Positions 28,970-45,154 of a stretch of 64,000 nucleotides of DNA are shown here, in pieces. Every line of letters begins with the position of its first letter. Positions within the stretch are counted from its first letter, which is position 1. The notes beneath the pieces were generated by a model. It saw only the letters and a program-made list of their open reading frames with translations, searched no databases and had not been told where the DNA came from. The DNA comes from Escherichia coli (GTDB lineage Bacteria > Pseudomonadota > Gammaproteobacteria > Enterobacterales > Enterobacteriaceae), in assembly GCF_046105845.1 (NCBI RefSeq), contig NZ_CP151004.1; one strand, 5' to 3'. The position numbers were made by a program, and so were the translations under genes.

Positions 28970-29431
28970 TTATTTCACTTCTTTAAAACCAGCGGCTTTC
29001 ATCACCAGTTCCATTTGCGCCATAGTGATACCTTTTTTGGCATCTTCAGCAGAAACGTTGATTCCTGAAATACCCTGCAGGGCTTTAAAATCCACTTTTT
29101 CCATATCGATAGTCACGTTTTCCTGCGCGTAGGTATCGGTATAGGTTAATTTTTCTTCAACACCCGCGATGTTTTTGTATTTGGCGCTTAACGGCTCAAG
29201 TGTCTTGGCAGCATCTTCTTTGGTGGTTGCACCAATGGAGGCAAATTGAATTTTGGTTTCAGAAGATTGCTTAAGCACCTTGTCACCTTTGTAGACATAG
29301 GTAATGGCAATTTCAGTGCCGTTCAGATTGGCGCTGAATTTTTTCGATTCTTCTTTGTCACCGCAGCCAGCAAGAGAGAAAACCAGAACAGATGCAACAA
29401 CGAGGGAAAACAGCTTATTGAAAGCCTTCAT
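28970..29431 (-). CDS. yehR: Lipoprotein YehR (DUF1307)
   Basis: Start at MKAFNKLFSLVVASVLVFSLAGC (lipobox) gives 153 aa. Confidence 0.88.
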   Translation of the reverse strand: MKAFNKLFSLVVASVLVFSLAGCGDKEESKKFSANLNGTEIAITYVYKGDKVLKQSSETKIQFASIGATTKEDAAKTLEPLSAKYKNIAGVEEKLTYTDTYAQENVTIDMEKVDFKALQGISGINVSAEDAKKGITMAQMELVMKAAGFKEVK

Positions 29432-29876: not shown

Positions 29877-31556
29877 TCAGGCGCGGGTTTTGGTCATCAT
29901 TACCCGTGGTTCCAGTGTCAATTGCCCCTCAACAAAACTGACAAAGCCAGAAACCAGACTCACGGGGTCGTCTGTGTGTTGCAAAAGTGCCGCCATGCGT
30001 TCAACGGCAAAAGGAGAACAGGCAGATGCCGGAAGGGATAACGTCAGCACATTATCTTCCCCTTCGCCGCTAATGACCTGCGCGTCCAGTGTCTGGCGGC
30101 TGCTATCCCAACCAAGCGAAATACACTCCGCTACCGGCAGAATAAATAAGTTATCGACCTGGTTGAGTGGTCGTATGCAGGCGGGGGGACGCTGGCGTAA
30201 ATATTCCCGCAAAGCCACAATGCCCGACTGGCGCAACGGCGCGCTCAACATTTGCCAGGCGTCTGGCGACAGCGGCACAACGCTGCTTAAGCGGTTGCGG
30301 GTAGCTAACAACAGCTCGCCATCGGCACTGCGTTTTGCTGCTTGTGAAACAATTTGCCCACCTGCCAGTGCGCCAGCCAGAAAACTAAACAGCCGACGCG
30401 TCGCTGCCGGTGAGTTTTCCTGTTCGCTTCTCGGCCAACTACGCGAAAGATGCAAAATACTGCCAGTGTCGGGATCGGTAAACCAGATGCGTAAACCATA
30501 ATGCTCAATATCCTGCCAGCAACGCATACCTAAAGACACCAGCCGCAGATGATCAAGCTTTGCTTCTCCGGCAATGCCAGAGCCAACGACCGTGCGCCAC
30601 GGCACAGGAGGAACTTCACCAACACTGTCGCGCCGGGCCATCTCTTGTGCGCAATTTAATCGACTGTTTAATGCCGCAAGCTGACGTAAGCATTCTCCGA
30701 CATGATAGTGGCTGGCGCGGGCGTGGAAGGCATCAACGCTGGCGCGCAGTTGCCGTAGCGATTCACTCACCCAGCGCCAGTTGCAGCGTTCCGCCGCTTG
30801 CTGCGCGCGGCTGAAAGCAGCCTTGTAATGAATAAGCGGCTGGCTGATGCCGCCAAGCCATAACGCCTGGCTTAATTGCTGAACATATTGACGACACGCG
30901 TCGCCCTCATCGTTGGCAAACGGATCGTCAGATGATGTGACGTGTTCGCTGCGCATCTGCCAGATTAAATGAGTAAATTCCGCTTGCTGCGCTTTGGCCT
31001 GGACAAAGGCCTGTACTGCCAGTACGACATGTTCGCAAAGTGTGCCGTCAATACAATCACAGCGTGCGAAACGAATGCTGCTGCGGGAATAAAAACGTAC
31101 ATCGCTCATCGGTAAGCGGGCAGAGGGAATTTCGCCCGGCGTACAGAACAACTCAATGGTGATGCCTTTAGCGACCAGTGTCTGTGCGCGTTTGCGGGTG
31201 GCATCGGGCAGGGTAGCCAGTTCTTCCAGCCAGATTGCCGGATCCCACTCTTCTTCTTTTTCCGTAGGCTGGGTGGTGGCGCAAAGTCGCTGATAACTTA
31301 AAACCAGCATCACGCGATGGCGGCACATGCCGCTGGCCCCGCAGCTGCATTGAGCCTCTTTCAGTGCCTGACCGTTCGCCAGCTGGGTGCGGACACCGTC
31401 ACTGAAGGTGGCGATTAAAGCGCCGTTCTCATGGCTGATTTCCGGGACGTTGCCATTTTCCAGTTCTTTAAGGCTGCGCTTAACAAAACCGGCATTGCTT
31501 AACGCCGTCAAAGCTTGTGGTGTCAGTTCTAATAATTCCGGCCGTAGTGAATTCAT
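29877..31556 (-). CDS. yehQ: SWIM zinc-finger protein YehQ (ends at an in-frame TGA)
   Basis: 559-aa ORF with SWIM motif CSCGASGMCRHRVM (CxCxnCxH); ATGA overlap with yehP stop. Confidence 0.85.
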   Translation of the reverse strand: MNSLRPELLELTPQALTALSNAGFVKRSLKELENGNVPEISHENGALIATFSDGVRTQLANGQALKEAQCSCGASGMCRHRVMLVLSYQRLCATTQPTEKEEEWDPAIWLEELATLPDATRKRAQTLVAKGITIELFCTPGEIPSARLPMSDVRFYSRSSIRFARCDCIDGTLCEHVVLAVQAFVQAKAQQAEFTHLIWQMRSEHVTSSDDPFANDEGDACRQYVQQLSQALWLGGISQPLIHYKAAFSRAQQAAERCNWRWVSESLRQLRASVDAFHARASHYHVGECLRQLAALNSRLNCAQEMARRDSVGEVPPVPWRTVVGSGIAGEAKLDHLRLVSLGMRCWQDIEHYGLRIWFTDPDTGSILHLSRSWPRSEQENSPAATRRLFSFLAGALAGGQIVSQAAKRSADGELLLATRNRLSSVVPLSPDAWQMLSAPLRQSGIVALREYLRQRPPACIRPLNQVDNLFILPVAECISLGWDSSRQTLDAQVISGEGEDNVLTLSLPASACSPFAVERMAALLQHTDDPVSLVSGFVSFVEGQLTLEPRVMMTKTRA

Positions 31557-32689
31557 GACTGAAGATTCTCCGCAAGCCAGGTCGCCAGTTCGCCCGGCGT
31601 CATGGCGGCTATTTGTGCGCCGACATTAACCAGCGCCTGGGCCGTATCGTGGTCATAGCAAGGTGTTGCGGTGCTATCGAGCGCCGCCAGTCCCAGTACT
31701 TTGATGCCGCTCTGGACACACTTTTTCACCTGATGCGTCAGTAATGATGATGAACCCCCTTCGTAAAAATCGCTCACGAGGATAATGACGCTTTTCGCTG
31801 GTTGTTCAATAAGTTGCCGACCATATTCCATGGCACTGGCGATATTGGTTCCGCCGCCTAATTGCACTTTCATTAATAACTCTACCGGATCGGCAACGTC
31901 TGCCGTGAGATCAACCACGCTGGTGTCAAACGCCACCAGATGGGTACGAATACCGGGTAACTGCCATAAACAGGTCGCCATCACCGCTGAGTGGATCACC
32001 GAGTCCACCATTGATCCGCTTTGATCAACCAGTAAGACCAGTTGCCATTGTTCACTGTGGCGCTTAATGCGGCTGTTAAAGCGGGGGGATTCGATATACA
32101 ACTTGCCGTGTTGCGGATGCCAGTGTTGCAGGTTGGCGCGCAGCGTACTTTTGAACTCAAAGTTTCGCGCCAGTGGAATAAATGAGCGGCGACGGCGATC
32201 GCGGACACCAGAAAAAGCCTGACGAACTTCCTTTGCCAGTCGCGCCATAATCTCTTCAACAACCTGGTGCACTATCCGGCGGGCGGCAGCCAGCACTTCG
32301 GGATTCATCAGATGTTTGGTGTGCAAAACGGCGCGTAGCAGGCTTTCAGAAGGCTGCATACGTTCCAGCACGTCGAGATTCGTCACCACATCTTCAATGC
32401 CGTAGCGCAGTACGGCATCGCTTTCCAGCCGCTCGATCACCCGTTGCGGAAACAGCGTGTGAATACTGTTGATCCACTCAGGGGTGGTGAGATTTGAGCC
32501 ACCTAATCCACCGGAGCGTTCACCACGCTGGAGCCGTTCAGGATCGCGCCCGTACAGCCACTCCAGCGCGTGGTCTATCTGCCGGGCATTGTCATCCAGC
32601 CCACAAAGGGTCGTTTCTGCCGCTTCGCCAAGAATTAATCGCCAGCGTTGTAGCTCACGGATAGTCAGAAGATCGTTCAGTTCAGACAT
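31553..32689 (-). CDS. yehP: von Willebrand factor A domain protein YehP
   Basis: Start at MSELNDLLTIRE gives 378 aa; MIDAS motif DQSGSM. Confidence 0.9.
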   Translation of the reverse strand: MSELNDLLTIRELQRWRLILGEAAETTLCGLDDNARQIDHALEWLYGRDPERLQRGERSGGLGGSNLTTPEWINSIHTLFPQRVIERLESDAVLRYGIEDVVTNLDVLERMQPSESLLRAVLHTKHLMNPEVLAAARRIVHQVVEEIMARLAKEVRQAFSGVRDRRRRSFIPLARNFEFKSTLRANLQHWHPQHGKLYIESPRFNSRIKRHSEQWQLVLLVDQSGSMVDSVIHSAVMATCLWQLPGIRTHLVAFDTSVVDLTADVADPVELLMKVQLGGGTNIASAMEYGRQLIEQPAKSVIILVSDFYEGGSSSLLTHQVKKCVQSGIKVLGLAALDSTATPCYDHDTAQALVNVGAQIAAMTPGELATWLAENLQS

Positions 32690-34961
32690 GGAAAACTCCC
32701 CAGTGTTGCAGCGATGCCAGTGCCTGCTGTTCGAGTTGTTGATGATGTGCAATGGCTTGCGGTGGACAATGCAACGGCATTTGCAGCGCTGAAACGGGAA
32801 GCTGTGTGAGCTGGTAATGCTCAAGCACCTGATGCGCCAGCGTCCCGCGTTCTCGTGGTGGTAGCCAGGCCATCGCCGCGCGTAAATCGGGCAGGGCGTT
32901 AATAAAATCGTCGTCACTCAGTTGATTTAAATGACTACTGAAACCGGCGATAAATGCCGGCTGACAGGCCAGTTGATGGCGGGCCAGCGCCAGCAAACCG
33001 TGCAGCGCTTCGCCGGATTGTGCCGGGGATAATTGCGCCAGCATTGTCAGCGCCGCTTCGGCACTGGCGTTGGGATGTTCCAGACGCATTAGTGCGCCAA
33101 GAGCCGCGCCGCGATCCAGCGCCGGGGCATGAATCGCCTGACTGCGGCGCTCCAGTAAGGCTACCGCCGCAGAAAGCGAAACGCCGGGTAAATTAACGCC
33201 GCTATGTAGATCGCGCAGGATATGGCAAAGCGTCTGCCAGCTATGCAGGTGAGCGTGAAACTCCTTTTCCTCCGGTCTGCCGTTGGATTCACACAGCCAG
33301 AGTGTGCGATCGATAGCCGCGCATAACGTCGTCTGTAATATCTGCGCGCCTTGCATACCGCTAATTTCATCCAGCCGCCATAAGGCGTATAGCACTTCCA
33401 GCGCCTGGCCCATTTCGGCAAACTGATTTTCCTGGGCGATTAATAATGTAAGTTGCTCCAGTAATTGTTGACTGAAGGACGCCAGACCCGCTAACGCCGC
33501 TTGGCTAAGACATGTGGTGATACTGCCGATTCCACCCGCGTCCAGCATATCGGCTTCTAATTTATTGCGTGCGGCTTCCTGGAGTGTGGCACCAAAGCAG
33601 GCGGCCTCAATCAATGCCGCATGCTGGCTAAGCGGGCGGGTTAATTTCCAGCGTTCTTCACCGTTGCCTGCAAGTGTCAGTGTGCTTCCCTGCTGGCGTA
33701 CAACCCCTGGGATCTCCAGTATTGCCAACCGATGTAACACCTGACTTTGCGCCAGTCCATCGGGGGTAAAGCGATTTAAGGTAAGCTCCGCCGGAAGAGA
33801 GATTCCGGTACGTTCCAGTTCGCAGGTGACATCTTTTGGCAGAGGCGGTTGTGGCGTAGAAGGGGCAAGTTTACCGAATCCGTCACCCGCTAATGTGTCT
33901 ATCAACGTTAGCAGAATCGGATCGGTATCGGGATGAATAACGCCGCGATAGCTCCACGGCAGCGGCGCATTCAGGGCTTCTTTAATCAGCGAGCCTGCTA
34001 TGGCATCCAGCCAGTCAGTGCGTAACGGTAGTGTATGACCACGCAACTGTGCCAGTGCCATCGCATGCAGATGAGCGGCAGCCATATCAGCGGTAGAAGC
34101 GGGCAATTTGTGCTGGCGCAAACGGGTAAGGATAGTTTTTAGCAGTTGTTCACCGGCCTGCTGTAGGCCCCACTGCCAGCACCAGTTTTGCCAGACCGGG
34201 GCAGGCATACCAGAAAGGTATCCTGCCAGCACATCAAGGCGCTTTTCACTGTAGGGGGTGAGATAACAACCTGTAACGGCATCATCCAGTAAGAGCAATT
34301 CTGGCGTGTTAATTACCTGCGGACATTCGCGCCACATTTTTGCCAGTGCCGGAGCGTGCCAGCCACCGCAGACAACTAACACGTCGCCATTATTTTGCTG
34401 CATCGCCCATCCAATCCAGCGGGCCATAAAGGCTTCGCGCTGACGATTGAGAACATCTCCGGGGGAGTCGCCCCGCAGTTGGGCAAAATAGTGCGCAAGT
34501 GCAGAGGGTAATGCAGTTTGCTGGCTTTCATCTTCGAACAAGTGATCCCACAGGGTGTCGCTGTTATCCATGCGGGTGGCACGCAGCAGCAAGGTCTGGC
34601 TTTCCTCTTGCGTATCAGGCGAATCGTCCTCTTCTTCACTCTGCGCCCAGCAAGGCAAATCGATGAAGTAAGTTTGTGCCTGAATACGACGAGCGGCTTG
34701 TAGCGCCTGCCACTCCGGCGAAAATTCAGCAAATGGCGTCCAGGCACCACGCCCGGGGGCTACACCGTCCTGATACTGGCAATAACTGTAAATAGCTACC
34801 GGAAGCTGGTGAGCTAACAACAGTTCGTCTACCCGGTCATTAAAATCAGCCGGGCCTTCAATCAACACGTATCGTGGCCGCTGGCTTTCGATTAACGATT
34901 TCACCAGCCGGGCGCAGGCCGGACTATGATGCCGGATGCCGACAATTAACGGCTCGCTCAT
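32682..34961 (-). CDS. yehM: Uncharacterised protein YehM
   Basis: Start at MSEPLIVGIRHHSPACARLV gives 759 aa; overlaps yehL stop and yehP start. Confidence 0.9.
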   Translation of the reverse strand: MSEPLIVGIRHHSPACARLVKSLIESQRPRYVLIEGPADFNDRVDELLLAHQLPVAIYSYCQYQDGVAPGRGAWTPFAEFSPEWQALQAARRIQAQTYFIDLPCWAQSEEEDDSPDTQEESQTLLLRATRMDNSDTLWDHLFEDESQQTALPSALAHYFAQLRGDSPGDVLNRQREAFMARWIGWAMQQNNGDVLVVCGGWHAPALAKMWRECPQVINTPELLLLDDAVTGCYLTPYSEKRLDVLAGYLSGMPAPVWQNWCWQWGLQQAGEQLLKTILTRLRQHKLPASTADMAAAHLHAMALAQLRGHTLPLRTDWLDAIAGSLIKEALNAPLPWSYRGVIHPDTDPILLTLIDTLAGDGFGKLAPSTPQPPLPKDVTCELERTGISLPAELTLNRFTPDGLAQSQVLHRLAILEIPGVVRQQGSTLTLAGNGEERWKLTRPLSQHAALIEAACFGATLQEAARNKLEADMLDAGGIGSITTCLSQAALAGLASFSQQLLEQLTLLIAQENQFAEMGQALEVLYALWRLDEISGMQGAQILQTTLCAAIDRTLWLCESNGRPEEKEFHAHLHSWQTLCHILRDLHSGVNLPGVSLSAAVALLERRSQAIHAPALDRGAALGALMRLEHPNASAEAALTMLAQLSPAQSGEALHGLLALARHQLACQPAFIAGFSSHLNQLSDDDFINALPDLRAAMAWLPPRERGTLAHQVLEHYQLTQLPVSALQMPLHCPPQAIAHHQQLEQQALASLQHWGVFHV

Positions 34962-34971
34962 GCATCTTTCC

Positions 34972-36060
34972 TCACGGCAGGCGGTGGCGAGCTTGATAAT
35001 AAGACTGCCAGTGAGCTTCTTTATGTGTGGCGACGCGCTGTTCGAAGTAACGGCGCAGACGCGCGCGATCTTCTTCGTTATCTTTGACGATGGTTCCGGC
35101 AATACAGTCCACCAGGTCGGCAGGCTCCCCCGCGCGATTCGCTAAAAACCAGGCGCGGACACCCACAGCATGGGCCACGTTAACGGCTTCAGCGGTGGAC
35201 ATAATCGCTGTCAGTGTATCCATTGACGTTTTCTTTTCGCCGTTGGCACGCAGATCGCGGAACGTGCGCACCAGTAATTCCAGTACCGCGTCAGGCACTT
35301 TATGCGGAATACCGCTATGGGCCAGCAAACGCGCCGAAGCACTGGCGACCAGTTCGAGCTCCTGGGCGAAATCCATAATCGGAAAGACAGTTTCAAAATC
35401 GAAGCGACGCTTTAGCGCAGCACTCATTTCATTGACGCCGCGATCGCGGGTATTGGCAGTGGCAATAATATTAAAGCCTTCCCGCGCATAGAGCTGACTG
35501 GCTTCACCAGTGAGTTCCGGCACCGTCATTACCCTGTCAGAAAGCATACCTAACAGACAGTCTTGTACTTCCAGCGGTGTACGCGTTATCTCTTCAAAAC
35601 GGACAATTTTGCCGTCGCGCATTCCCTGGTAAAGCGGGGCTGGGACCAGCGCTTCCGTTGACGGACCATGGTTGATAAGCAGGGCGTAGTTCCAGCCGTA
35701 CTTGATTTGATCTTCGGTGGTAGATGCGCCGCCCTGGATGGTTAACCCGGCATCGCCGCTAATAGCGGTTGCCAGTAATTCAGACAGGAGAGATTTTGCG
35801 GTACCCGGTTCCCCCACCAACATCAAACCGCGCCCGGTGGCAAGAGTGACTAACATACGTTCGACAGCGGAGGGACTAATCACCACTTTACGGCTAATAT
35901 TTTGCGCGCTATCGCCAAGGATAAAAGCACGGGCCGCAGGCAAACTTAACTGCCAACCGGGCGGGCAAGGTGCGTTATCATTTTGTTTTAATTTTGCCAG
36001 TTCATCGGCGTATAACACAGCAGCAGGCGGACGCTGCAGATGATTATTCTGCGGTGACAT
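34972..36060 (-). CDS. yehL: MoxR-type AAA+ ATPase YehL
   Basis: Start at MSPQNNHLQRP gives 362 aa; Walker A GEPGTAKS. Confidence 0.9.
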   Translation of the reverse strand: MSPQNNHLQRPPAAVLYADELAKLKQNDNAPCPPGWQLSLPAARAFILGDSAQNISRKVVISPSAVERMLVTLATGRGLMLVGEPGTAKSLLSELLATAISGDAGLTIQGGASTTEDQIKYGWNYALLINHGPSTEALVPAPLYQGMRDGKIVRFEEITRTPLEVQDCLLGMLSDRVMTVPELTGEASQLYAREGFNIIATANTRDRGVNEMSAALKRRFDFETVFPIMDFAQELELVASASARLLAHSGIPHKVPDAVLELLVRTFRDLRANGEKKTSMDTLTAIMSTAEAVNVAHAVGVRAWFLANRAGEPADLVDCIAGTIVKDNEEDRARLRRYFEQRVATHKEAHWQSYYQARHRLP

Positions 36061-36171
36061 ATATTCATCCCTGAAATGTATTAATGAAATAAACGATATT
36101 TTACGCGCAATAAATGTTTTGCGCATTAGTTGTTTGAACGGAAAATATCTGGAAAGCAGATCACAGTAAAT

Positions 36172-36254
36172 AAAAAAACCTGCTGGTGAGGCAGGTTCTT
36201 TTATTTACTATTTTCAGGCCCAACACCGCAGCCTGTGCAACATCGTGTTCCAAC
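36172..36254 (-). ncRNA. Candidate OrzO-like antitoxin sRNA, copy 1
   Basis: Minus-strand TATAAT at 36266-36261 with TTGCAA -35 at 36289-36284 (17-bp spacer); ends at hairpin CCTGCCTCACCAGCAGG followed by TTTTTTT (36195-36172). Confidence 0.45.
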
Positions 36255-36283
36255 GAACGAATTATAACCATCGGTGGACCCCG

Positions 36284-36311
36284 TTGCAATTAAGATAATG
36301 AGATTTATAAT
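36284..36311 (+). promoter_or_regulatory. Sigma70 promoter of toxin mRNA, copy 1
   Basis: TTGCAA-16 bp-TATAAT; predicted start near 36318 gives a 5' UTR of about 175 nt. Confidence 0.5.
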
Positions 36312-36492
36312 CCAGACGGTTGGGACGTTGCGCCGGATCGGACCAATTTCAAGTCCTGGCTACCGGACGGGTGGTGCTGCAGGTGGTGCCCTGATCCGGA
36401 GTGCAACATCGTGGTCCAACATACGTAAACCAGTATCGACAGGCAGTGTAAGGGTAAGGTGCTGGTGTTGCGCTCCTTAATAAGGAGAGCGG

Positions 36493-36582
36493 ATGGACAC
36501 GCAGACACAAAAGTTAACCGTGCTCATTGCTGTACTGGAGCTATTAGTGGCTCTGTTACGGTTGATTGATTTGTTGAAGTAA
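36493..36582 (+). CDS. zorO: Type I toxin, ZorO/ZorP family (29 aa), copy 1
   Basis: AGGAGAG Shine-Dalgarno then MDTQTQKLTVLIAVLELLVALLRLIDLLK*; which copy is zorO versus zorP cannot be told from sequence alone. Confidence 0.75.
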   Translation: MDTQTQKLTVLIAVLELLVALLRLIDLLK

Positions 36583-36604
36583 TGGGCAAATTGAAACGCA
36601 TCTA

Positions 36605-36634
36605 AGGGGGAATACCGCTTCCCCCTTTAATAAA
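36605..36634 (+). terminator. Terminator of toxin mRNA, copy 1
   Basis: AGGGGGAA-taccgc-TTCCCCCT stem followed by TTAATAAAAT. Confidence 0.4.
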
Positions 36635-36777
36635 ATGATTACATCTTCCATTAATTCACCTGATAACTTTTTTCTTATTTATAAATTCATCGATTTTATA
36701 ATTAACGTACCATTTCGCCGGGATGTGAATATTTATGGTGGCTATTGGCGAAAAATATCTGGAAAGTAGATCGCAGA

Positions 36778-36862
36778 AAATAAAAGAACCTGCTGGTGAG
36801 GCAGGTTCTTTTATTTACTACTTTGATGTTAAGTTACTGATAGTGCAACATGGCATCTCAAC
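36778..36862 (-). ncRNA. Candidate OrzP-like antitoxin sRNA, copy 2
   Basis: Minus-strand TATAAT at 36874-36869 and TTGCAA at 36897-36892 (17-bp spacer); hairpin at 36789-36805 followed by a U-rich tract. Confidence 0.4.
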
Positions 36863-36891
36863 GAACGAATTATAACCACCGCTGGACCGTG

Positions 36892-36919
36892 TTGCAATTA
36901 AGATAATGAGATTTATAAT
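36892..36919 (+). promoter_or_regulatory. Sigma70 promoter of toxin mRNA, copy 2
   Basis: TTGCAA-16 bp-TATAAT. Confidence 0.5.
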
Positions 36920-37100
36920 CCTGACTGTTGGGAAGTTGCGCCGGATCGAACCCATTTCAAGTCCTGGCTACCGGACGGGTGGTGCCGCAGGTAGTGCTCT
37001 GATCCGGAGTGCAACATGGCGACTCAACATACGTAAATCAGTATCGACAGGCAGTGTAAGGGTAAGGTGCTGGTGTTGCGCTCCTTAATAAGGAGAGCGG

Positions 37101-37190
37101 ATGGACACGCTGACACAAAAGTTAACCGTGCTCATTGCCGTACTGGAGCTATTAGTGGCTCTGTTACGGTTGATTGATTTGTTGAAGTAA
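37101..37190 (+). CDS. zorP: Type I toxin, ZorO/ZorP family (29 aa), copy 2
   Basis: MDTLTQKLTVLIAVLELLVALLRLIDLLK*; differs from copy 1 only at codon 4 (CTG Leu versus CAG Gln). Confidence 0.75.
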   Translation: MDTLTQKLTVLIAVLELLVALLRLIDLLK

Positions 37191-37209
37191 TGGGCAAATT
37201 GAAACGCAA

Positions 37210-37563
37210 CTAAGGGGGAAAACCGCTTCCCCCTTTAATAAAGTAATATTCTATTAGTTGGTTGAATATATTCTGTAGTTTACGATTAAAAATTGCTATT
37301 ACAGTTTCAGGTGATTCACCTCGTAATTTCCGCTCATCAATACACTCATCTCTTATATAAATCAACGCATCATTTATTAGCGGGTCAGCATCTTCTCGAT
37401 CACGTTGATGAAATGTTGGACGTAGCCGGAATCGCTCCAGTCGATAGACAGAACCTGTAAATAATTCAGAGCGTTTATGGATCTCAAGCCTGAAGGAAAA
37501 CGGCTCTTCAGGTACAGGGGCCTCATAATCGTAAATAGTGATCAGCTCTTTTTGCACGATCAT
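37210..37563 (-). CDS. yehK: Uncharacterised protein YehK
   Basis: 117-aa ORF starting MIVQKELITIYDYEAP; its last 10 codons lie inside the copy-2 terminator hairpin (37213-37242). Confidence 0.7.
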   Translation of the reverse strand: MIVQKELITIYDYEAPVPEEPFSFRLEIHKRSELFTGSVYRLERFRLRPTFHQRDREDADPLINDALIYIRDECIDERKLRGESPETVIAIFNRKLQNIFNQLIEYYFIKGGSGFPP

Positions 37564-37623
37564 CGCTTTTCCCGGTGGCAGGTCGTGTTAATAACGAGCA
37601 GTCGCATCACTGCCCGCTGTGTT

Positions 37624-40600
37624 TTAATGGAAAATAACGTCGGGTGCGCTTAACGCTTCACTCAAATCAAACACATCAAGTTCGGCAAAAGTGACAGATT
37701 TATTGTCACGGTATACACAAAGAGAACGGAAGCTCATTAGCGCTTTGCTATCAACATTGTAGCGGTTAAAACTGGATGAAAACTTAAGGACCAGCCGGTA
37801 CTCGCCCAGGCCATAGACAAATGCGTCCTCATAGCCTGACTCCCAGCCTTTGTATCGCATTCCCATAAGCTGCCCAACGGTAGCGGATTTACCTTCCCAG
37901 CGAGTCAGGCTGTTACTGGTTGACTCGTCAGGCGTGAGCAGCACCGTGCGGCGCGACAACTGGCGAAAAGGCGGCATAATTTCGTAATCGGCAAAAAGCT
38001 GTGCAAATTCACTGCGCATTTCTGCTGTCATTTCTAACGGGTGGGCAATGCCAATCAGAGCATCCGCAGGAAGGTCAATGGGCTCATCCTGCGCATTGCA
38101 GAACTCCCCCTCAGCGGCCACACGAAAGGCGTTGAGTAAACGACGCGGTTCATTTGCCGGATAAACACCCCATATTAATCGCTGAGTAACCAGGCGGGTA
38201 AAGGGATGATTAACAAACAGAGAACGAAAATCTGCCAGCGACCAGCGTCGGATGGTGCGCAGGGCCGTTTCAAGACGCGGGAGCAGGTTTTTGCTCACCT
38301 GAGTAGCATCTTTTTTTAGCCCTTTTAGTCGTGCCAGTGCCTCGGGCGCTTTCAGTTGATCGTCATCGGCGCGCAACCGTGGAACGCTTTTCTGGCGAAC
38401 GTTTTGCTGATCAAAGATAACCGGGTTGAGGTTTTCATCGAAGCGAACGGTAAACTGCCGGGGACCAAAATCAAAACTCAACGCCTGCGGATCATCAAGG
38501 CCCAGTGTTGGGACTAATCTGTCCGCTAACTCTTCCTGGCTTAGCCCGCGATTTTCTGCGACTACCTGAAGAAATTCCGCCGCGTTATCACGTAAGGGGC
38601 GGGATTTCGCCCGTTGCGATATATGATGCAGCTGCATCAGCGCCATATCATTATTCATCAGGGTAAGGATGTTCAGGCCACTGACAGCACGGGCAGATTT
38701 GCCTTCTTGTGGCCAGGCGAGGATCTGTGTCGTCAGATCCCGAGCCGTGCTTTCGTCACCAAAGAGACTTAACGCCAGAAATGCCCAGTTGTCTTTTGCA
38801 GGGGCACCAGCTTGTTGCCAGGCGGTGAAGAGATCCCAGGCAAAAGCTGCGAGCGTTTGTGGTTGGCAAAACGTTTTCAGTTGTTCCAGCCCGCTATAAA
38901 AACGTCCCCCCTGGGTAAAGCGCAGCATTTCGCCGATAATTTCCAGAGCGTCATCGGTAACAGGTTGATTATTAGTGATAAGGCGCGGCCTGGACCACAT
39001 TTGCGGATGCCAGAAATCAGGGGCTTTTGGCATGCGCGCCGGGTAAATTTCCAGCGGGTTCTGGGTAAGTATTTTTTCCAGGGCTGGCCACACATCAGCA
39101 CGATCCCAGCGGTTTGCCACGGTTTGTAGTAATTCGCCATGTCCCTGTTCGTAAAGTAAACGCAGGGCAAATAATGCAGCTTCGCTATTATCGCTGGATT
39201 TAATGAAGACAAGAGGGATAAGTGCAGTAGCCGTATGTTCCGGCCATTGTAAAATCCACTGGCGGGCCAGATCACGCTGCGCCGCGAAACGTCGCCAGAC
39301 GCGGGCAACGGGCAGGGCCAGTTCGGTTGCGCCGAAATTTAAAATTAACGGAAATGTTTCTTTTGGACGATGTGAAAAAGCCAACAGCAGACCTGGTAGA
39401 GCATCCAATCCGAAGATACTGAGAAAATAGTCCTCACCCGCAGACAGATGCTTTTTCTCATTGATACGTAGCCAGAAAGTCAAAGCCATCTCACGCGGCA
39501 ACTGCGCCAATAAATACAGGTTCCAGATACTCTTTTCCCGACGATAGCGTGAGTAGCTGTCATTTTCCCATATGTTAATTAACACTTCTACGTGACCGCT
39601 GCGAAGCGCCTGTTCTGCTAATTGAGCTTCCGGGGAGCTCCAGCCATTCATGATCTCTTCAACCCGCCCTGGGTAGTAATGCCACTGAACAATGAGTGAA
39701 TTGCGTGCAGCATCCAGTTTTCCGGGGAGTATATAATTCAAAAACAGCCATACATCATCTCCAAAACCCAGCTCCTGTAGTACAACTCGTCCACTTTTAT
39801 GTTCCATGCGTTCCGCAAGAGATTCCGTGCTGAAATAACGGGCAGACTCAGTGGCGGCAAGCCTCTCTCGTTCGCCTGGTTGCCAGTAAACTTGCGGCGT
39901 TAATTCGAACGGTGCCAAATCAAGACGTGGAACTGTCATTTTTTTCTTACTACGCCACGGTGGTGAAACGAGGATTTCAGGCAGATTGCTGTTATCGGTG
40001 CCATCAATAACCGGTTTGGGCGGTGCCGATAAATAACTATTCAGCACTGCCCGGGCTTGAGTACTTAACCACGGCATCACTTCTGCTGCCAGTTGTGGCT
40101 GCGATGCCATCAGCGTTTGTAACAGTGTACGCCAGTATTCATCTCGAGCTTTTTGCTGTGCAGGCAGCTTTTTGTCTTCGATGATTGGATAACCAGGGCG
40201 CGCAGGTGGTTCTTTTAGCGCCAGAAGCTCTGCCAGTGCGGCAAGCGTCGCATGGGGGAAATTTTTACTGTATTTAGCTACACGTTGCAGGCTGGGTTTG
40301 TTTTTATCAGCAACTAACAGCAGGGTGCGGATGACCTGCGGATGGTTAATTTGTACCAGCAGACTGCCGCAATCTTCTTTATGGGCATACATTGCCAGGC
40401 GTGGAACGGCTGCCAGTCCTTGTTCGCGCAAAAGGGCAGCGCAGGCCGCGTAGCCGAAGTGGTTTTCATGCGACATGTAGCTGGCTTCCCGATCGCTAAA
40501 TATATCCTGGCTCCAGTAGCGTTCGAGTTTTTTCACCGCTCTGGGGTCATTAGCAACAACTTTTAACCACTCCTTAGAATGAAAATGAGTCCGCGGGCAT

Positions 40601-41256
40601 TCAAGGTCTACCAACTCATTGGCGATTTCTGGTTTTTCCGGGAGGATCAGCGCAATAAAAGGGCGGCGAACTTTGGTTATTCCTGGCAGTGCGGCAATGA
40701 GTTTGTCGGCGCAACGCTGCCAGCTGCTTTCCTCTGCCAGAGAGAGATGCTTACGCAGTCGGAGATCGAATTCGTTATAGGTTTCTGAGCGATAACCATA
40801 GCCATAATCCTCGTCCTGATACTGCAATGTCACTAGCAGAGGATCACTTTCATAACACCGTGCAATAAACTGGCGTGCAATCACCACCTCAGTCGCATAT
40901 TCCAGTCCCTCTTGTTGGACGATTTCGTCGAGCAACTGTTGGCTATCATTTTGCGCGATACAGGCTAGCGCCGCCATTGTCCGGGCCGGAACTGAGGGTT
41001 TGTGTTCTCCGATCAAGTTGATGGCCTGCGTAATGGCCGACTGCCACTCCAGTGAAAAATTTTCATAACGCCAGACAATGTTTTTTTTCTTCTCAGCTTT
41101 TTGTAGCAATTCATCACCCAGTGTCTGGATGAGGCTTTCAGTGATAACAGGCACTGGTTCGCCCGGCCAACTGCGATGGCTGAGCGGCGTTTTGCCTTTT
41201 TTATATTTCAGTTCCACTTGGGCGTTATCCGCCAGCCACGGTAATTCCTTGTCCAT
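37624..41256 (-). CDS. yehI: Large DUF4132-family protein YehI
   Basis: 1210-aa ORF; extensive paralogy with molR (RLRKHLSLAEESSWQRCADKLIAALPGI versus RLRKHLALAEETLWQRCVDKFITALPDI). Confidence 0.93.
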   Translation of the reverse strand: MDKELPWLADNAQVELKYKKGKTPLSHRSWPGEPVPVITESLIQTLGDELLQKAEKKKNIVWRYENFSLEWQSAITQAINLIGEHKPSVPARTMAALACIAQNDSQQLLDEIVQQEGLEYATEVVIARQFIARCYESDPLLVTLQYQDEDYGYGYRSETYNEFDLRLRKHLSLAEESSWQRCADKLIAALPGITKVRRPFIALILPEKPEIANELVDLECPRTHFHSKEWLKVVANDPRAVKKLERYWSQDIFSDREASYMSHENHFGYAACAALLREQGLAAVPRLAMYAHKEDCGSLLVQINHPQVIRTLLLVADKNKPSLQRVAKYSKNFPHATLAALAELLALKEPPARPGYPIIEDKKLPAQQKARDEYWRTLLQTLMASQPQLAAEVMPWLSTQARAVLNSYLSAPPKPVIDGTDNSNLPEILVSPPWRSKKKMTVPRLDLAPFELTPQVYWQPGERERLAATESARYFSTESLAERMEHKSGRVVLQELGFGDDVWLFLNYILPGKLDAARNSLIVQWHYYPGRVEEIMNGWSSPEAQLAEQALRSGHVEVLINIWENDSYSRYRREKSIWNLYLLAQLPREMALTFWLRINEKKHLSAGEDYFLSIFGLDALPGLLLAFSHRPKETFPLILNFGATELALPVARVWRRFAAQRDLARQWILQWPEHTATALIPLVFIKSSDNSEAALFALRLLYEQGHGELLQTVANRWDRADVWPALEKILTQNPLEIYPARMPKAPDFWHPQMWSRPRLITNNQPVTDDALEIIGEMLRFTQGGRFYSGLEQLKTFCQPQTLAAFAWDLFTAWQQAGAPAKDNWAFLALSLFGDESTARDLTTQILAWPQEGKSARAVSGLNILTLMNNDMALMQLHHISQRAKSRPLRDNAAEFLQVVAENRGLSQEELADRLVPTLGLDDPQALSFDFGPRQFTVRFDENLNPVIFDQQNVRQKSVPRLRADDDQLKAPEALARLKGLKKDATQVSKNLLPRLETALRTIRRWSLADFRSLFVNHPFTRLVTQRLIWGVYPANEPRRLLNAFRVAAEGEFCNAQDEPIDLPADALIGIAHPLEMTAEMRSEFAQLFADYEIMPPFRQLSRRTVLLTPDESTSNSLTRWEGKSATVGQLMGMRYKGWESGYEDAFVYGLGEYRLVLKFSSSFNRYNVDSKALMSFRSLCVYRDNKSVTFAELDVFDLSEALSAPDVIFH

Positions 41257-41265
41257 GCTCTTTCC

Positions 41266-44200
41266 TTATTCAAACAGGGCTTCAATATCGTTAATGAGTT
41301 CGCTGGCGGTGATGTCGTCGAGCACGGAGAACTGCGCTTCCTGTGTTGAATTACTCCCCCAGCCATAGCTTTCCGCTTTGCCTTCCCATAGCCACAGCTT
41401 ACTCAAGAGTTGCTCGGCACTGAGTTCGGCTGGCGACATGCCGACCGCAAAACCTTCATCGATTTTCATGATTAACGACCAGCGGCCCAGCGGTTTGATC
41501 ATCCAGCCGATCCAGCCACCGTCCTGCGGTTCACCACGCATCCAGCCTTTATTCGCCAGCCCCATTACCCGACCGCTCGGGCATTTTCTGCCTGCCCAGC
41601 GGGTCAATTCGCTGGCATTGCGCTCGGTTTCTGTCAGGGCGTAACTGTTACGGTCGAGCTGGCGGAACGGCGGTAGCAGTTCGTAGTCGGCAAAAAGTTG
41701 ACCAAAGGCGGCAGCATCCGTGGGTGATATTTCCAGAACGTGAGGAATCCAACAGAGATATCGCCTTCCGGCAGGGTGAAAAGATCATCGTCTGCGGTGC
41801 TGTAGCTGTTATCTTCCGCCACGCGAAAGCAAGCCAGTAGCTCGTTTTCGGTGCTATAAACGCCCCAAATCAGACGGCGGGTTAAGTGACGAACCAGCGG
41901 ATGCTCAACCAGGAAGAGCTGAAAGTTTTCCGGCGACCAGCGGCGGCGCAGGCACATGGCGGATTCCAGCCTTGCTACCTGCTGGGCGGCGACGGTACGC
42001 GCATCTTTTTTCAGCAATTTGTAGCGGTTAACAGCATCGTTTGCCTGTGATTCATCATCGCTTTTATTGGGTTTAGGTAAGTCTTTCAGGCGGCTGCCGG
42101 AAACATCGCGCACAAACGGTTTTAAGGTTTCATCAAAGCTGACGGTGAACTGGCGTGGGCCAAAATCCAGCAGCAGCGAACCGTTATCATCCAGACCGAG
42201 ATCCGGTGCTAACCGATCTTCAAGCTCCGCTACCGTCAGTTCGCGACTCTCGGCAATGTCGGCAATTTTTTCTTTTGCCCGCTCCTGTAATGCTTTGAAT
42301 TTCAGTTTCTGGGCGATCCCGTTAAGCTGCATCAGGGCGATATCACTACCGATAGCAGCGAGAATATCCAGCCCGACGGTGGCGCGTTTATGCTGGGATT
42401 CACCAGGCCAGGCGCGAATCAAAGGCGTCAGTTTGCGGGCGGTGTCGTCGTTACCGAGAACGCCTAACGCAGTGAACGCCCAGCTCTCTTTCGATGGTGC
42501 GCCAGCGGCCAGCCAGGCGGTAAACAGATCCCAGGTAAATTCAGCCAGTGAGTCGGCGGTACAGGCGGCTTTCACCTGCAATAATCCCGGATACAGTGCC
42601 TCTTCCTGAGGGAAGCGGAGCATTTCACCGAGGCGTAGGAGGGCGCTATCTGGCAGTGATTGGGCATTTGCTTTTAATACCGGGCGGGTCCAGATCGATG
42701 GCTGATAAAAGGCCGGAAGAGTGGGGATTTTTGTCGGGTGATTATCTAAGGGATCGAGCGCAAGCATAGCGTTCACCGCATCTATTACTTCCGGCTGGTT
42801 ATAACGCCGGGCGATTTCTTGCAGTAATGGCTGATGATCGTTTTCGATAAGCATACGCAAGGCAGCGCGGGCGTTATCCTGGGCTTCACCGGCTTTGCCG
42901 AGCGCCGCAGGCAGTAGGCCGGTAATGGCGTGTTCCGGGTATTTCAGCAGCCAGGTGCGGGCGTCTTGTCGTAGGGTTTTGAGTTTGTTGAAGGCGCGGG
43001 CGATCAGTGGCGCTAATTCGATAGCCGCAAAATATTGTGCTACAGGCAGAGCTTCTTGTGGATAGCGTGAAAAGGAGTGAATAAAACCCTGTAACCCAGT
43101 GAGTTGCAGGTGCGTCATGACAAACTCGACACCGACGTGTGGCTCTTTACTGAGGACATTCCACGCCTGCGCTGTCTTTTCGATAGGCAGGGCGGCTAAC
43201 ATGTAAAGCTGCCATTCCCGTTGATAGGAGTGCCAGAAGGTTTTAAATTCGCTGATCAGCGCGGAATAATGTCCCCTTTGCCAGAGATCTATAGCAGCAT
43301 CAGGCGCTTTCATATACTGGCCATTATTCCAGCGATTGAAACCCAGACGTGCCAGGTAGTTCTGAATATCCTCTTTTTGGCCGATGTCTATTTGATGTGC
43401 GTGCCAGCGATGCCTTGCATGAATCTCTTTTTCTGCCGTCTCGGTCAATGTGCAGCATGACTCCAACGATAATGGCGTTAAATCCAATACCGGTATAACA
43501 GATTTTTTCTTTTTCGAAAGCCAGGGCGGTGAGACTAATACGGCAGGCAGTAGATCGGCGCAGGCATGGTTTGAGGGCTGTGTCAGTTGTTGCAGGCATG
43601 CTTTCAGCACTGCAACTGCGGGTGTTGAGAGCCAGGGAGTGACCTGATCTGCCAGTGCCGGTTGCGAGATAAGCATCGTCATCAGCATAATGCGCCAACT
43701 ATTCTCTTCTTTTTGCGCAAGAAGTTCCGCCAGTGCCGCCAGTGCCGTGTGTGGGAACGCAGCGCAAGCCTTAGTCATTCGTTCATGGCAGCGTTTAGTT
43801 TTGCCAGACACACGTATAAGTAGCATTAATGCTTGTGGGTGATTGATCTCTGCGAGAATGCTTCCGCAAAGATCAGCATAAGCATAGGGGGCGAAGCGAG
43901 CGATTCCAGCAATCCCTTGCTCCTGCAAAACGGTGACATTCCAGATGCAACCATGGTAATAGTCATTAAAAAGGTCGTACGCGCAATAAGATTCCAGTGC
44001 TTTGAGTAAGGAAGATTCTTGAACAACAAGTTTCAGCCATTCAACAGTTTGGACATTTTTCTGCTTCAGTAACCGTCGTGCGACTTCTTCTGCAATCTCC
44101 GGGCGTTCCGGTAGCATTAGCGCTACCATCGGTTGTTGAACGGGAGGAATATCAGGTAAAGCTGTAATGAATTTATCTACACAGCGTTGCCACAAAGTTT

Positions 44201-45014
44201 CTTCTGCAAGAGCCAAATGCTTACGCAGTCGAACGTCAAAGGGGGTAACACAATGTGCATGGTTTAATAATGGCTGAAAAGTAATGTGTATGCTTGTTCT
44301 GTGATAAGCGCAATCGAACGAGATATATTGCATGGCAATAAACATATCCACGGCAAATTCTAGTCCGTAGACATAGACAATTTCATCCATGAGTTCAGGG
44401 CATTCGCCCCAGAATTTACGCGAAACCAGACCAACCTGTACAGCCAACGCAGCAGGAGAAAGTGGACCATTAGCGAGAGCTTCATTGATATTCTGCTGCC
44501 AGTTAGCAGAACATGCACTGAAATCGTATGTTGTTAATTTTCCTGATAGATTATGAATATCCTGACCTAAATTCATAAGGAGGCTGTCTTGTGGTTCGCT
44601 TACAGCATCCCCAGGAAAACGTCGGGAAGGTAAGGCCTCCTGAGACTTTTTCTCCGATAGATGGATAGTGGAATCATCTGTAAGCCACGGGCATGGTGTC
44701 TCAGCAGGTTCAGCAACCATACTTTGGTCAAATACGACAGTGGTTTCTGCCACGCCAGTTGTATCTACTTCGATCGTTTCTATTTTGATTGCGGTTTGGG
44801 ATGGCGAAGATAATTCTTCCACATACCCCTTCTTCACCTTCTCCGCAATCAGCTTCAGTCCCGCTTTTTCCGCCGCTGCTGCATCCGCAAAACTTTTTAC
44901 CTGGCTTTGTCCGTTGGTGCCGACTTTACCCCAGTTGATGTGCAGTTCGTTTCCCTGCTGCTCCACCGCCCAGAATTTATGTGATTTTTCGTCCTGATAG
45001 ATAAAGTGTTTCAT
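41266..45014 (-). pseudogene. molR: molR (yehH): WGR-domain/DUF4132 giant protein gene with a frameshift near the C-terminus
   Basis: ORFs 41634-45014 (1126 aa) and 41266-41607 are in different frames; the second frame continues the YehI-like C-terminal homology (ISPTDAAAFGQLFADYELLPPFRQL...); N-terminus has a WGR-like motif (KFWAVEQQGNELHINWGKVGTNG). Confidence 0.8.
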
Positions 45015-45154
45015 TCTGCATCCCTGTAATTTTATCCAGTTGAATGCTGATGCTACCAGTATTTATGCGGGTTAGAGAGAGACAAAATCGCAAGAAAACA
45101 ACTTTAGGAATTTATAAAGAAAAGGCGCTGTCGATGCAGCGCCTTGAAGGGGGA

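Follow-up and report, generated by a model that had tools for sequence, protein, structure and literature searches.

The yeh locus of Escherichia coli was analysed in a window of 64,000 nucleotides (nt; NCBI RefSeq assembly GCF_046105845.1, contig NZ_CP151004.1), in which four minus-strand genes, yehL, yehM, yehP and yehQ, share a neighbourhood with two genes for giant DUF4132 proteins. The region is matched in 5342 of 5426 complete E. coli genomes (98.5%), with a top identity of 98.4% over the 6.2 kb from 29877 to 36060. The RefSeq annotation of the top match lists, on the minus strand, yehQ, yehP, yehM, yehL, a yehK-like pseudogene, yehI, a second DUF4132 gene and metG. The yehLMPQ genes are the motor and adaptor half of a five-component module that includes WGR-DUF4132 proteins. 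The architecture of the encoded machine is near-certain: a MoxR AAA+ ATPase (YehL), an adaptor bearing a metal ion-dependent adhesion site (MIDAS; YehP), a TIKI-fold protein (YehM), a protein that combines SWIM motifs with putative oligonucleotide/oligosaccharide-binding (OB) folds (YehQ), and a WGR-DUF4132 protein. The four genes, in coding order, are as follows.

34972-36060, minus strand: yehL, a MoxR-class AAA+ ATPase of the AAA_5 type (YehL subfamily), 362 amino acids (aa)
32682-34961, minus strand: yehM, a DUF5682 protein with an N-terminal TIKI/ChaN/TraB/EreA-like domain (approximately residues 1-260) followed by a helical-repeat scaffold, 759 aa
31553-32689, minus strand: yehP, a VWA protein with a complete MIDAS site, 378 aa
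29556-31556, minus strand: yehQ, 666 codons; two SWIM motifs are followed by a helical region, a putative tandem OB fold and, at the C terminus, a four-helix bundle

The four consecutive, co-directional genes that an earlier note on this DNA had described are all present. The DNA, read directly, shows the yehP start lying over the yehM stop in an 8-nt overlap (ATGTCTGA) and the yehQ start over the yehP stop in a 4-nt overlap (ATGA), both as that note had it. Its 11-nt overlap between yehL and yehM is instead a 10-nt spacer (TGA-ggaaagatgc-ATG, again read directly), in agreement with the RefSeq annotation. The 3´ boundary that it placed at 29877 is a premature stop in yehQ, and the gene body runs on to 29556.

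The module was followed in 84 loci from Gamma- and Betaproteobacteria, Myxococcota and Actinobacteria, annotated with hidden Markov models built for each protein. Wherever the contig permits, the order YehL>YehM>YehP>YehQ is invariant. Co-conservation, on which the case for a four-gene unit had been staked beforehand, is strong and extends over three phyla. Junctions of -4 and -1 nt prevail in more than 80 loci, which bears out the proposed tight coupling: the yehL/yehM junction has a median of -1, the yehM/yehP junction is -4 in 54 of 82 loci and the yehP/yehQ junction is -4 in 60 of 80, numbers that are biased toward small gaps by the rule of picking the start codon closest to the upstream stop. 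One to five DUF4132 genes adjoin the four genes in 79 of the 84 loci, mostly upstream and on the same strand, and YehH and YehI, the DUF4132 proteins of E. coli, are therefore part of the system. A DUF4132 gene carries an N-terminal WGR domain in at least 53 of these 79 loci. The two giant paralogs named in the earlier note are thus both present. Given how regularly DUF4132 genes adjoin the module, they are components of it rather than bystanders, and one of them, yehH, is frameshifted in this genome.

Gene order around the invariant core varies with lineage. In Burkholderia, the AAA_5, DUF5682, VWA_CoxE and SWIM genes are followed by the WGR-DUF4132 gene, and in Serratia the WGR-DUF4132 gene stands first. 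The Klebsiella order is metG, WGR-DUF4132, DUF4132, AAA_5, DUF5682, VWA, SWIM and yehR; all gaps are small (78 nt between the DUF4132 and AAA_5 genes), and the six module genes are contiguous. An all-against-all BLAST of the flanking open reading frames (ORFs) gave no sixth conserved neighbour beyond genus-level synteny; the flanks are genus-specific and consist of metabolic and housekeeping genes in three unrelated genera. With one genome scanned per species, YehM relatives were found in at least 563 species, and the module spans at least approximately 560 species and approximately 2,250 sequence clusters at 50% identity.

YehL is the predicted motor. To our knowledge, E. coli has two MoxR ATPases in all, YehL among them. 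The protein matches Pfam AAA_5 at 2.6e-34 over residues 79-220, and its nearest solved sequences are the AAA modules of midasin (3e-10) and the MoxR protein 2r44. Four motifs, GEPGTAKS, VRFEEITR, IATANTRD and SAALKRRF, are invariant or near-invariant, with at most three of the 84 homologues deviating at any position; by analogy they would be Walker A, Walker B, sensor 1 and the arginine finger. GEPGTAKS had been named as a MoxR-type Walker A before, and its conservation across the family agrees with that reading. VRFEEITR is kept almost without exception across loci, so that the putative Walker B has an invariant E-E where AAA+ proteins mostly have D-E. E. coli YehL is 65–78% identical to actinobacterial and betaproteobacterial orthologues, and 65–67% identical to those of the actinobacteria Streptomyces, Lentzea and Glycomyces. 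Constraint of this degree across phyla is unusual for a gene of unknown function. The 'YehL subfamily' of MoxR ATPases is named after this protein (PMC3893208).

Two genes downstream of yehL, yehP encodes the VWA partner (Pfam VWA_CoxE at 1.5e-68), a homologue of which was found in 82 of the 84 loci, with contig ends cutting the exceptions. The DQSGSM motif noticed earlier is present and is completed by T281 and D307; all five MIDAS residues (D222, S224, S226, T281 and D307) are invariant in the family. YehP is 54–70% identical to its actinobacterial and betaproteobacterial orthologues, and sequence and profile searches of the PDB returned no solved relative.

YehM had been described as having no recognisable motif. 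Profile search places it in DUF5682 (Pfam, 4.5e-97), and structure prediction gives its N-terminal domain an alpha/beta fold of the TIKI/ChaN/TraB/erythromycin-esterase type, with haem-binding ChaN as the top structural match. The structures that match the model are named as members of the TIKI superfamily, whose catalytic set consists of two His and two Glu plus a conserved basic residue, Arg (PMC6254334). The invariant residues of YehM are H11 and H12 (GVRHHSP), E35 (LIEGP), E83, D101, R175, E176 and H202 (GGxHxP). Placed by strand context, the invariant His, Glu and Arg residues come after β-strands, as in the superfamily pattern GxxH...E...GxxH. Because the fold is of the TIKI type and these residues do not vary, the N-terminal domain is a predicted hydrolase. 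Neither Pfam nor a PDB profile search detected sequence similarity to the TIKI superfamily, and no solved relative was found in the PDB. Unlike the members of that superfamily (TIKI, TraB/PrgY, erythromycin esterases, RRSP, PMT, HopBA1 and ChaN), the YehM domain is fused to a helical scaffold of approximately 500 residues and is encoded in a MoxR-VWA operon. The protein is 39–51% identical to its actinobacterial and betaproteobacterial orthologues.

Full-length DUF5682-VWA fusions, equivalent to YehM joined to YehP, occur in two independent contigs, both with an AAA_5 gene upstream and a SWIM/YehQ-like gene downstream. The existence of such fusions argues that YehM and YehP may act together physically. 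One locus (GCA_022841245.1, JALHRW010000058.1, 2227-21543) holds two tandem copies of the module. In the first copy, DUF4132, WGR-DUF4132 and AAA_5 genes are accompanied by a DUF5682-VWA fusion and by a gene for a YehQ-like protein of 665 aa. Ahead of the second copy, a protein of 501 aa and a HEAT_2 protein take the place of DUF4132. Immediately upstream, on the opposite strand, is a gene for an ATP-dependent DNA ligase.

In YehQ, the SWIM signature CxCxnCxH that had been claimed is present in two copies of the form CxCx5CxH, C70-x-C72-x5-C78-x-H80 and C166-H176, with weak Pfam support. Residues C70, C72, C78, R79 and H80 of the first copy are invariant in the family. The predicted model (predicted local distance difference test, pLDDT, 91.6; predicted template modelling score, pTM, 0.89) comprises an N-terminal part with the two SWIM motifs, a helical segment, a β-rich region at approximately 330–560 and a C-terminal four-helix bundle at 583–665. 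The β-rich region would form a tandem OB fold that resembles RPA70-AB, LEF-3, HIN and POT1; two methods agree on this resemblance, which is statistically marginal. YehQ and the DUF4132 proteins are 31–46% identical to their actinobacterial and betaproteobacterial orthologues.

The DUF4132 half of the module and the regulatory site at its head lie upstream of yehL.

37624-41256, minus strand: yehI, a DUF4132 giant of 1210 aa, intact (Pfam DUF4132, 8.4e-47)
41266-45014, minus strand: yehH (molR), a WGR and DUF4132 giant, head gene of the ancestral operon, a pseudogene here
45024-45039, minus strand: LexA (SOS) box CTGGATAAAATTACAG, 10 nt upstream of the yehH/molR ATG

No solved relative of YehI was found in PDB sequence and profile searches. 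The LexA box is identical in K-12 and in locus L001, and Klebsiella grimontii has CTGGATAAAAACACAG at the equivalent position. The LexA-regulated genes whose SOS box is already known include molR (PMC6590174). The box emerged from a relaxed search for CTG-N10-CAG, as searches of the window with the perfect LexA consensus gave no match. Among the CTG-N10-CAG sites, the one at 45024 alone is AT-rich and in promoter position. The pattern occurs 32 times in the whole window compared with 13.4 ± 3.4 expected from shuffles; this excess is probably an effect of codon usage rather than of LexA sites, because CTG and CAG are frequent codons. A promoter and terminator consensus scan for a yehL promoter was uninformative. 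In Deinococcus radiodurans, the DUF4132 protein DRA0166 and the WGR protein DR2173 are induced by mitomycin C via IrrE/DdrO, with RDRM sites upstream (PMC8533742). Together, the LexA box, the Deinococcus findings and the presence of WGR, SWIM and OB domains point, with moderate confidence, to DNA damage or aberrant DNA as the context of the system.

In Escherichia, the two halves of the module are separated by an insertion.

36061-37623: Escherichia-specific insertion with yehK and tandem zorO-orzO/zorP-orzP, not a component of the system
37210-37563, minus strand: yehK, inside the insertion between yehI and yehL
36172-36247 and 36782-36855, minus strand: Orz small RNAs (Rfam OrzO-P RF02083, 101.3 and 90.2 bits, gathering score 60)
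36493-36582 and 37101-37190, plus strand: Zor toxin ORFs, 29 aa, hydrophobic, from the ORF listing

The type I toxin-antitoxin insertion reported next to the operon is therefore confirmed by two OrzO-P small RNAs and two 29-aa ZorO/P ORFs. The two Zor ORFs, MDTQTQKLTVLIAVLELLVALLRLIDLLK and MDTLTQKL..., differ at a single residue, and the zor-orz unit is duplicated with a period of approximately 610 nt. K-12 is without the tandem zor-orz, and its yehK-yehL gap is just approximately 306 nt. Among the 84 annotated loci, the two from Escherichia alone gave a YehK homologue. Judged from gene order across the loci, the yehK and zor-orz insertion splits the ancestral operon in Escherichia. In K-12, H-NS binds the intergenic region upstream of yehL, and expression of yehL and yehM is raised in mutants of hns/stpA (PMC3686432).

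The copy in this genome is damaged at both ends. The earlier note was right about a lesion in the SWIM gene. At 29877-29879, the reading frame meets a TGG>TGA nonsense mutation (W560*), in a gene that differs from intact 666-codon alleles by 31 substitutions in 2001 nt without an insertion or deletion. W560* takes off the C-terminal bundle alone, and the SWIM and OB parts of YehQ remain. Compared with an intact 1249-aa allele, yehH has a 1-nt deletion near 41748 that shifts the frame and leads to a stop after codon 1126, inside DUF4132; the Pfam WGR match is retained (7e-18), and the DUF4132 match ends at model position 106 of 179. Since yehH is frameshifted and YehQ lacks its C-terminal bundle, the system is probably crippled in this strain. 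K-12 (NC_000913.3, 2196474-2210944; locus L088) carries E615* (GAG>TAG) in yehQ, which shortens the product to 614 aa, and has its yehH broken up into yehF and a pseudogene. The K-12 lesions are independent of those in this strain and strike the same two genes. Protein clusters from E. coli and Shigella include YehQ frameshifts, N-terminal truncations and internal deletions, and many clusters of truncated YehQ and YehM; most E. coli sequences fall in full-length clusters (P0128, 11,049 members; P0129, 4,644). A cost, or relaxed selection, could lie behind this repeated loss of the module's first and last genes. The ratio of nonsynonymous to synonymous substitution rates (dN/dS) between this strain and K-12 is 0.08–0.18 for yehL, yehM, yehP, yehQ and yehI, which indicates purifying selection until recently and hence recent lesions. 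Diversifying selection was rejected on the same values.

The most economical mechanism, to which we give about an even chance, is by analogy that of a split midasin-like remodelling machine, possibly tied to DNA damage. For the binding partners, client, nucleic-acid binding, hydrolase activity and physiological role we infer the following scheme. A ring of YehL would be the source of an ATP-driven pulling force, as in midasin, CbbQO, NorQD and RavA-ViaA, and the MIDAS site of YehP would hold an acidic residue of a client protein. YehM, fused to YehP in some lineages, would be the scaffold that bears the TIKI-type hydrolase domain. The two SWIM motifs and RPA-like tandem OB fold of YehQ, with the WGR domain of DUF4132 proteins, would tether the machine to nucleic acid, probably single-stranded DNA (ssDNA) or DNA ends. 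The DUF4132 proteins, variable in copy number, would likely be the clients or sensors on which the machine acts by remodelling or activation. In the ancestor of Escherichia and Klebsiella, the six genes would have formed one operon behind the LexA box, so that the machine would have been made upon DNA damage. In Escherichia, the yehK and zor-orz insertion would then have uncoupled yehLMPQ from the LexA-box promoter, leaving these four genes under H-NS silencing. A more specific proposal is tentative and possible rather than probable: an unrecognised pathway for DNA damage or foreign DNA, in which the SOS-induced split AAA+/MIDAS motor is brought to ssDNA or DNA ends by the SWIM-OB and WGR domains and remodels DUF4132, switching on a TIKI-type protease or esterase.

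Several observations weigh against the remodelling mechanism and its link to DNA damage. The Pfam SWIM matches of YehQ are weak (9.7e-4 for the first copy and 0.12 for the second), and the second motif is degenerate in about half of the homologues in the family. The invariant residues of YehM are placed by strand pattern, and some TIKI-fold proteins, ChaN and PMT, are non-hydrolases. Many DUF4132 copies lack WGR. The Deinococcus comparison covers DUF4132 and WGR proteins only. There is no LexA-like box upstream of yehL, and a crude scan of the 84 module heads with lineage-specific patterns found none in Serratia, Erwinia, Burkholderiales or Actinobacteria. Boxes of the LexA type stand at module heads in Klebsiella (by scan) and Escherichia (by direct inspection) and no others; SOS control is therefore shown only for the Escherichia/Klebsiella locus, and universal, family-wide SOS control was rejected. 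Finally, a search of the literature on yehL, yehM, yehP and yehQ, DUF5682 and DUF4132, yehI, yehH, yehF and yehK, and the YehL subfamily found no functional study, biochemistry or phenotype.

Like RavA-ViaA, CbbQ-CbbO, NorQ-NorD and CoxD-CoxE, the yeh module places an AAA_5 ATPase gene by a VWA gene with an intact MIDAS in a translationally tight arrangement, and ATP-driven remodelling of a MIDAS-held client would be expected of it as of these pairs. Unlike them, it has three more obligatory partners (DUF5682, the protein with two SWIM motifs and tandem OB fold, and WGR-DUF4132), no conserved gene for a client enzyme, and an invariant FEE rather than DE in the Walker B. The closest solved sequence relative of YehL is midasin (Rea1/Mdn1), the AAA+ protein of eukaryotic ribosome assembly, which likewise joins AAA_5-type modules, a MIDAS domain and long helical linkers and strips assembly factors off a nucleic-acid-protein particle. 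However, midasin is one polypeptide of approximately 5,000 aa with six fused AAA modules, whereas the yeh module consists of separate ATPase, MIDAS and helical proteins, and no ribosome link is indicated.

The genes, the 'YehL subfamily' and the RefSeq domain annotations are already known. In the searchable literature, we found no description of the five-component definition with DUF4132 and WGR, the TIKI-fold assignment of DUF5682, the tandem OB fold of YehQ, the molR SOS box as the head of an ancestral operon, or the parallel lesions of K-12 and this strain. The system was earlier called uncharacterised, and this is accurate: searches of PADLOC, of NCBIfam (a scan of six proteins) and of PDB sequences gave nothing specific, and the literature is sparse. 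The role of the protein that names a whole MoxR subfamily was likewise found undescribed in the searchable literature. What was a vaguely annotated four-gene operon becomes a defined five-component machine with a predicted enzymatic centre and predicted nucleic-acid-binding parts, headed by a gene already known to be SOS-regulated. As both yehH and yehQ are broken in K-12, work in K-12 may have found nothing. If the link to DNA damage is true, the module would be a new multi-protein effector in the SOS and radiation-desiccation responses.

A role as switches in conflict systems has been proposed for MoxR-VWA pairs. The rival explanation closest to the remodelling mechanism, which overlaps with it in part and differs chiefly in purpose, is a nucleoside triphosphate-dependent conflict system against phages or mobile elements: DUF4132, WGR and SWIM-OB would sense nucleic acid that is invading or damaged, with the MoxR-VWA pair as the switch and the TIKI-type domain of YehM as a protease effector causing arrest or death of the cell. 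We consider this unlikely. The TIKI fold does occur in the toxins RRSP, PMT and HopBA1 (PMC6254334), and a MoxR-VWA core with variable partners is what the MoxR-vWA 'ternary' conflict systems (Pfam bpMoxR and related) also have; yet YehL matches bpMoxR, the ternary-system model, weakly and partially (0.0021), Pfam finds no β-propeller or effector families in YehL, YehM, YehP or YehQ, and none of 5,027 PADLOC models is matched by YehL, YehM, YehP, YehQ, YehI or YehK at E <= 0.01. The patchy taxonomic distribution and the one to five tandem DUF4132 copies per locus would suit a conflict system, but within E. coli the module is core-genome, present in the 98.5% of complete genomes noted above, and it occupies the same site by metG in the Escherichia and Klebsiella records examined, flanked by metabolic and housekeeping genes and not by defence islands. 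Induction by SOS would coincide with prophage induction; the module is essentially absent from phage records, tblastn of 50,697 phage records finding no such genes, and only 38 of 72,556 plasmid records carry the cluster. Cost or toxicity could explain why yehQ and yehH are repeatedly inactivated in E. coli, Shigella and K-12, although the low dN/dS and the identity of YehL across phyla are unlike those of fast-evolving immune genes. The defence role floated in the earlier note thus receives no positive support. Six PHROG families (phrog_30700, 33984, 31592, 29006, 20839 and 36295) match YehM (split in two), YehP, YehQ, YehI and YehK near-identically and at full length. They are not taken as evidence of a phage origin: because the matches are near-identical and full-length and the tblastn search was negative, they are probably host chromosomal DNA in prophage records, a contamination caveat for that library.

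It is rather improbable that the cluster in this genome is a decaying, H-NS-silenced relic without current function, whose tight junctions were inherited and say nothing of present activity. Of the six module genes, two carry lesions here (W560* in yehQ and the frameshift in yehH), the same genes carry independent lesions in K-12, and truncated YehQ and YehM clusters are many in E. coli and Shigella; however, yehL, yehM, yehP and yehI are intact, most E. coli sequences belong to the full-length clusters P0128 and P0129, and the low dN/dS of all genes, yehQ included, makes the lesions recent. The insertion severs the operon from the SOS promoter and H-NS silences yehLM in K-12 (PMC3686432), as a relic would have it, but the SWIM and OB parts survive in the truncated YehQ, and YehI, as a paralogue, could stand in for YehH.

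A maturation or cofactor-insertion chaperone like the class I chelatases (CobS/CobT/CobN, BchI/BchD/BchH) or CoxD/CoxE, with DUF4132 as the partner of approximately 130–150 kDa and the ChaN-like domain of YehM handling a metal or tetrapyrrole-type ligand, is improbable: the three-part logic of MoxR-like AAA+, VWA and partner of approximately 140 kDa (CobNST, BchHID) is closely paralleled in size and architecture (an AAA_5 ATPase of approximately 360 aa, a VWA protein and partners of 1,200–1,400 aa), but Pfam on YehH and YehI gives WGR and DUF4132 alone, with no CobN/BchH (CobN-Mg_chel) signal; the CoxE-type VWA of YehP with its weak match to a cobaltochelatase model (9e-4, NCBIfam scan) and the YehL match to a phage 'porphyrin biosynthesis' (CobS-like) PHROG are offset by the absence of a conserved client metalloenzyme gene nearby and by WGR, SWIM-OB and TIKI-like proteins and an SOS box that have no chelatase counterpart and, like DNA-damage regulation, are unexpected for a cofactor-insertion machine; the haem-binding ChaN match of YehM is countered by invariants of the 2His/2Glu/Arg type, which suit hydrolases better than haem ligation by ChaN; and the historical name of yehH, molR ('molybdate metabolism regulator'), is countered by molybdenum-metabolism genes that gave no joint response with the Deinococcus homologues (PMC8533742).

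The yeh module shows unusual divergence among E. coli strains. The yehQ gene is only 90–95% identical to the copy in the window in 3776 of 5363 records. Compared with K-12, the synonymous rate dS of the module genes is 0.11–0.18 (0.18 for yehQ), whereas it is 0.01 for the adjacent yehR (28970-29431) and 0.08 for btsS. This divergence suggests old allelic lineages or recombination at the locus. The YehM of a gull isolate is 98.6% identical, and its 4.9-Mb record is filed among plasmids.

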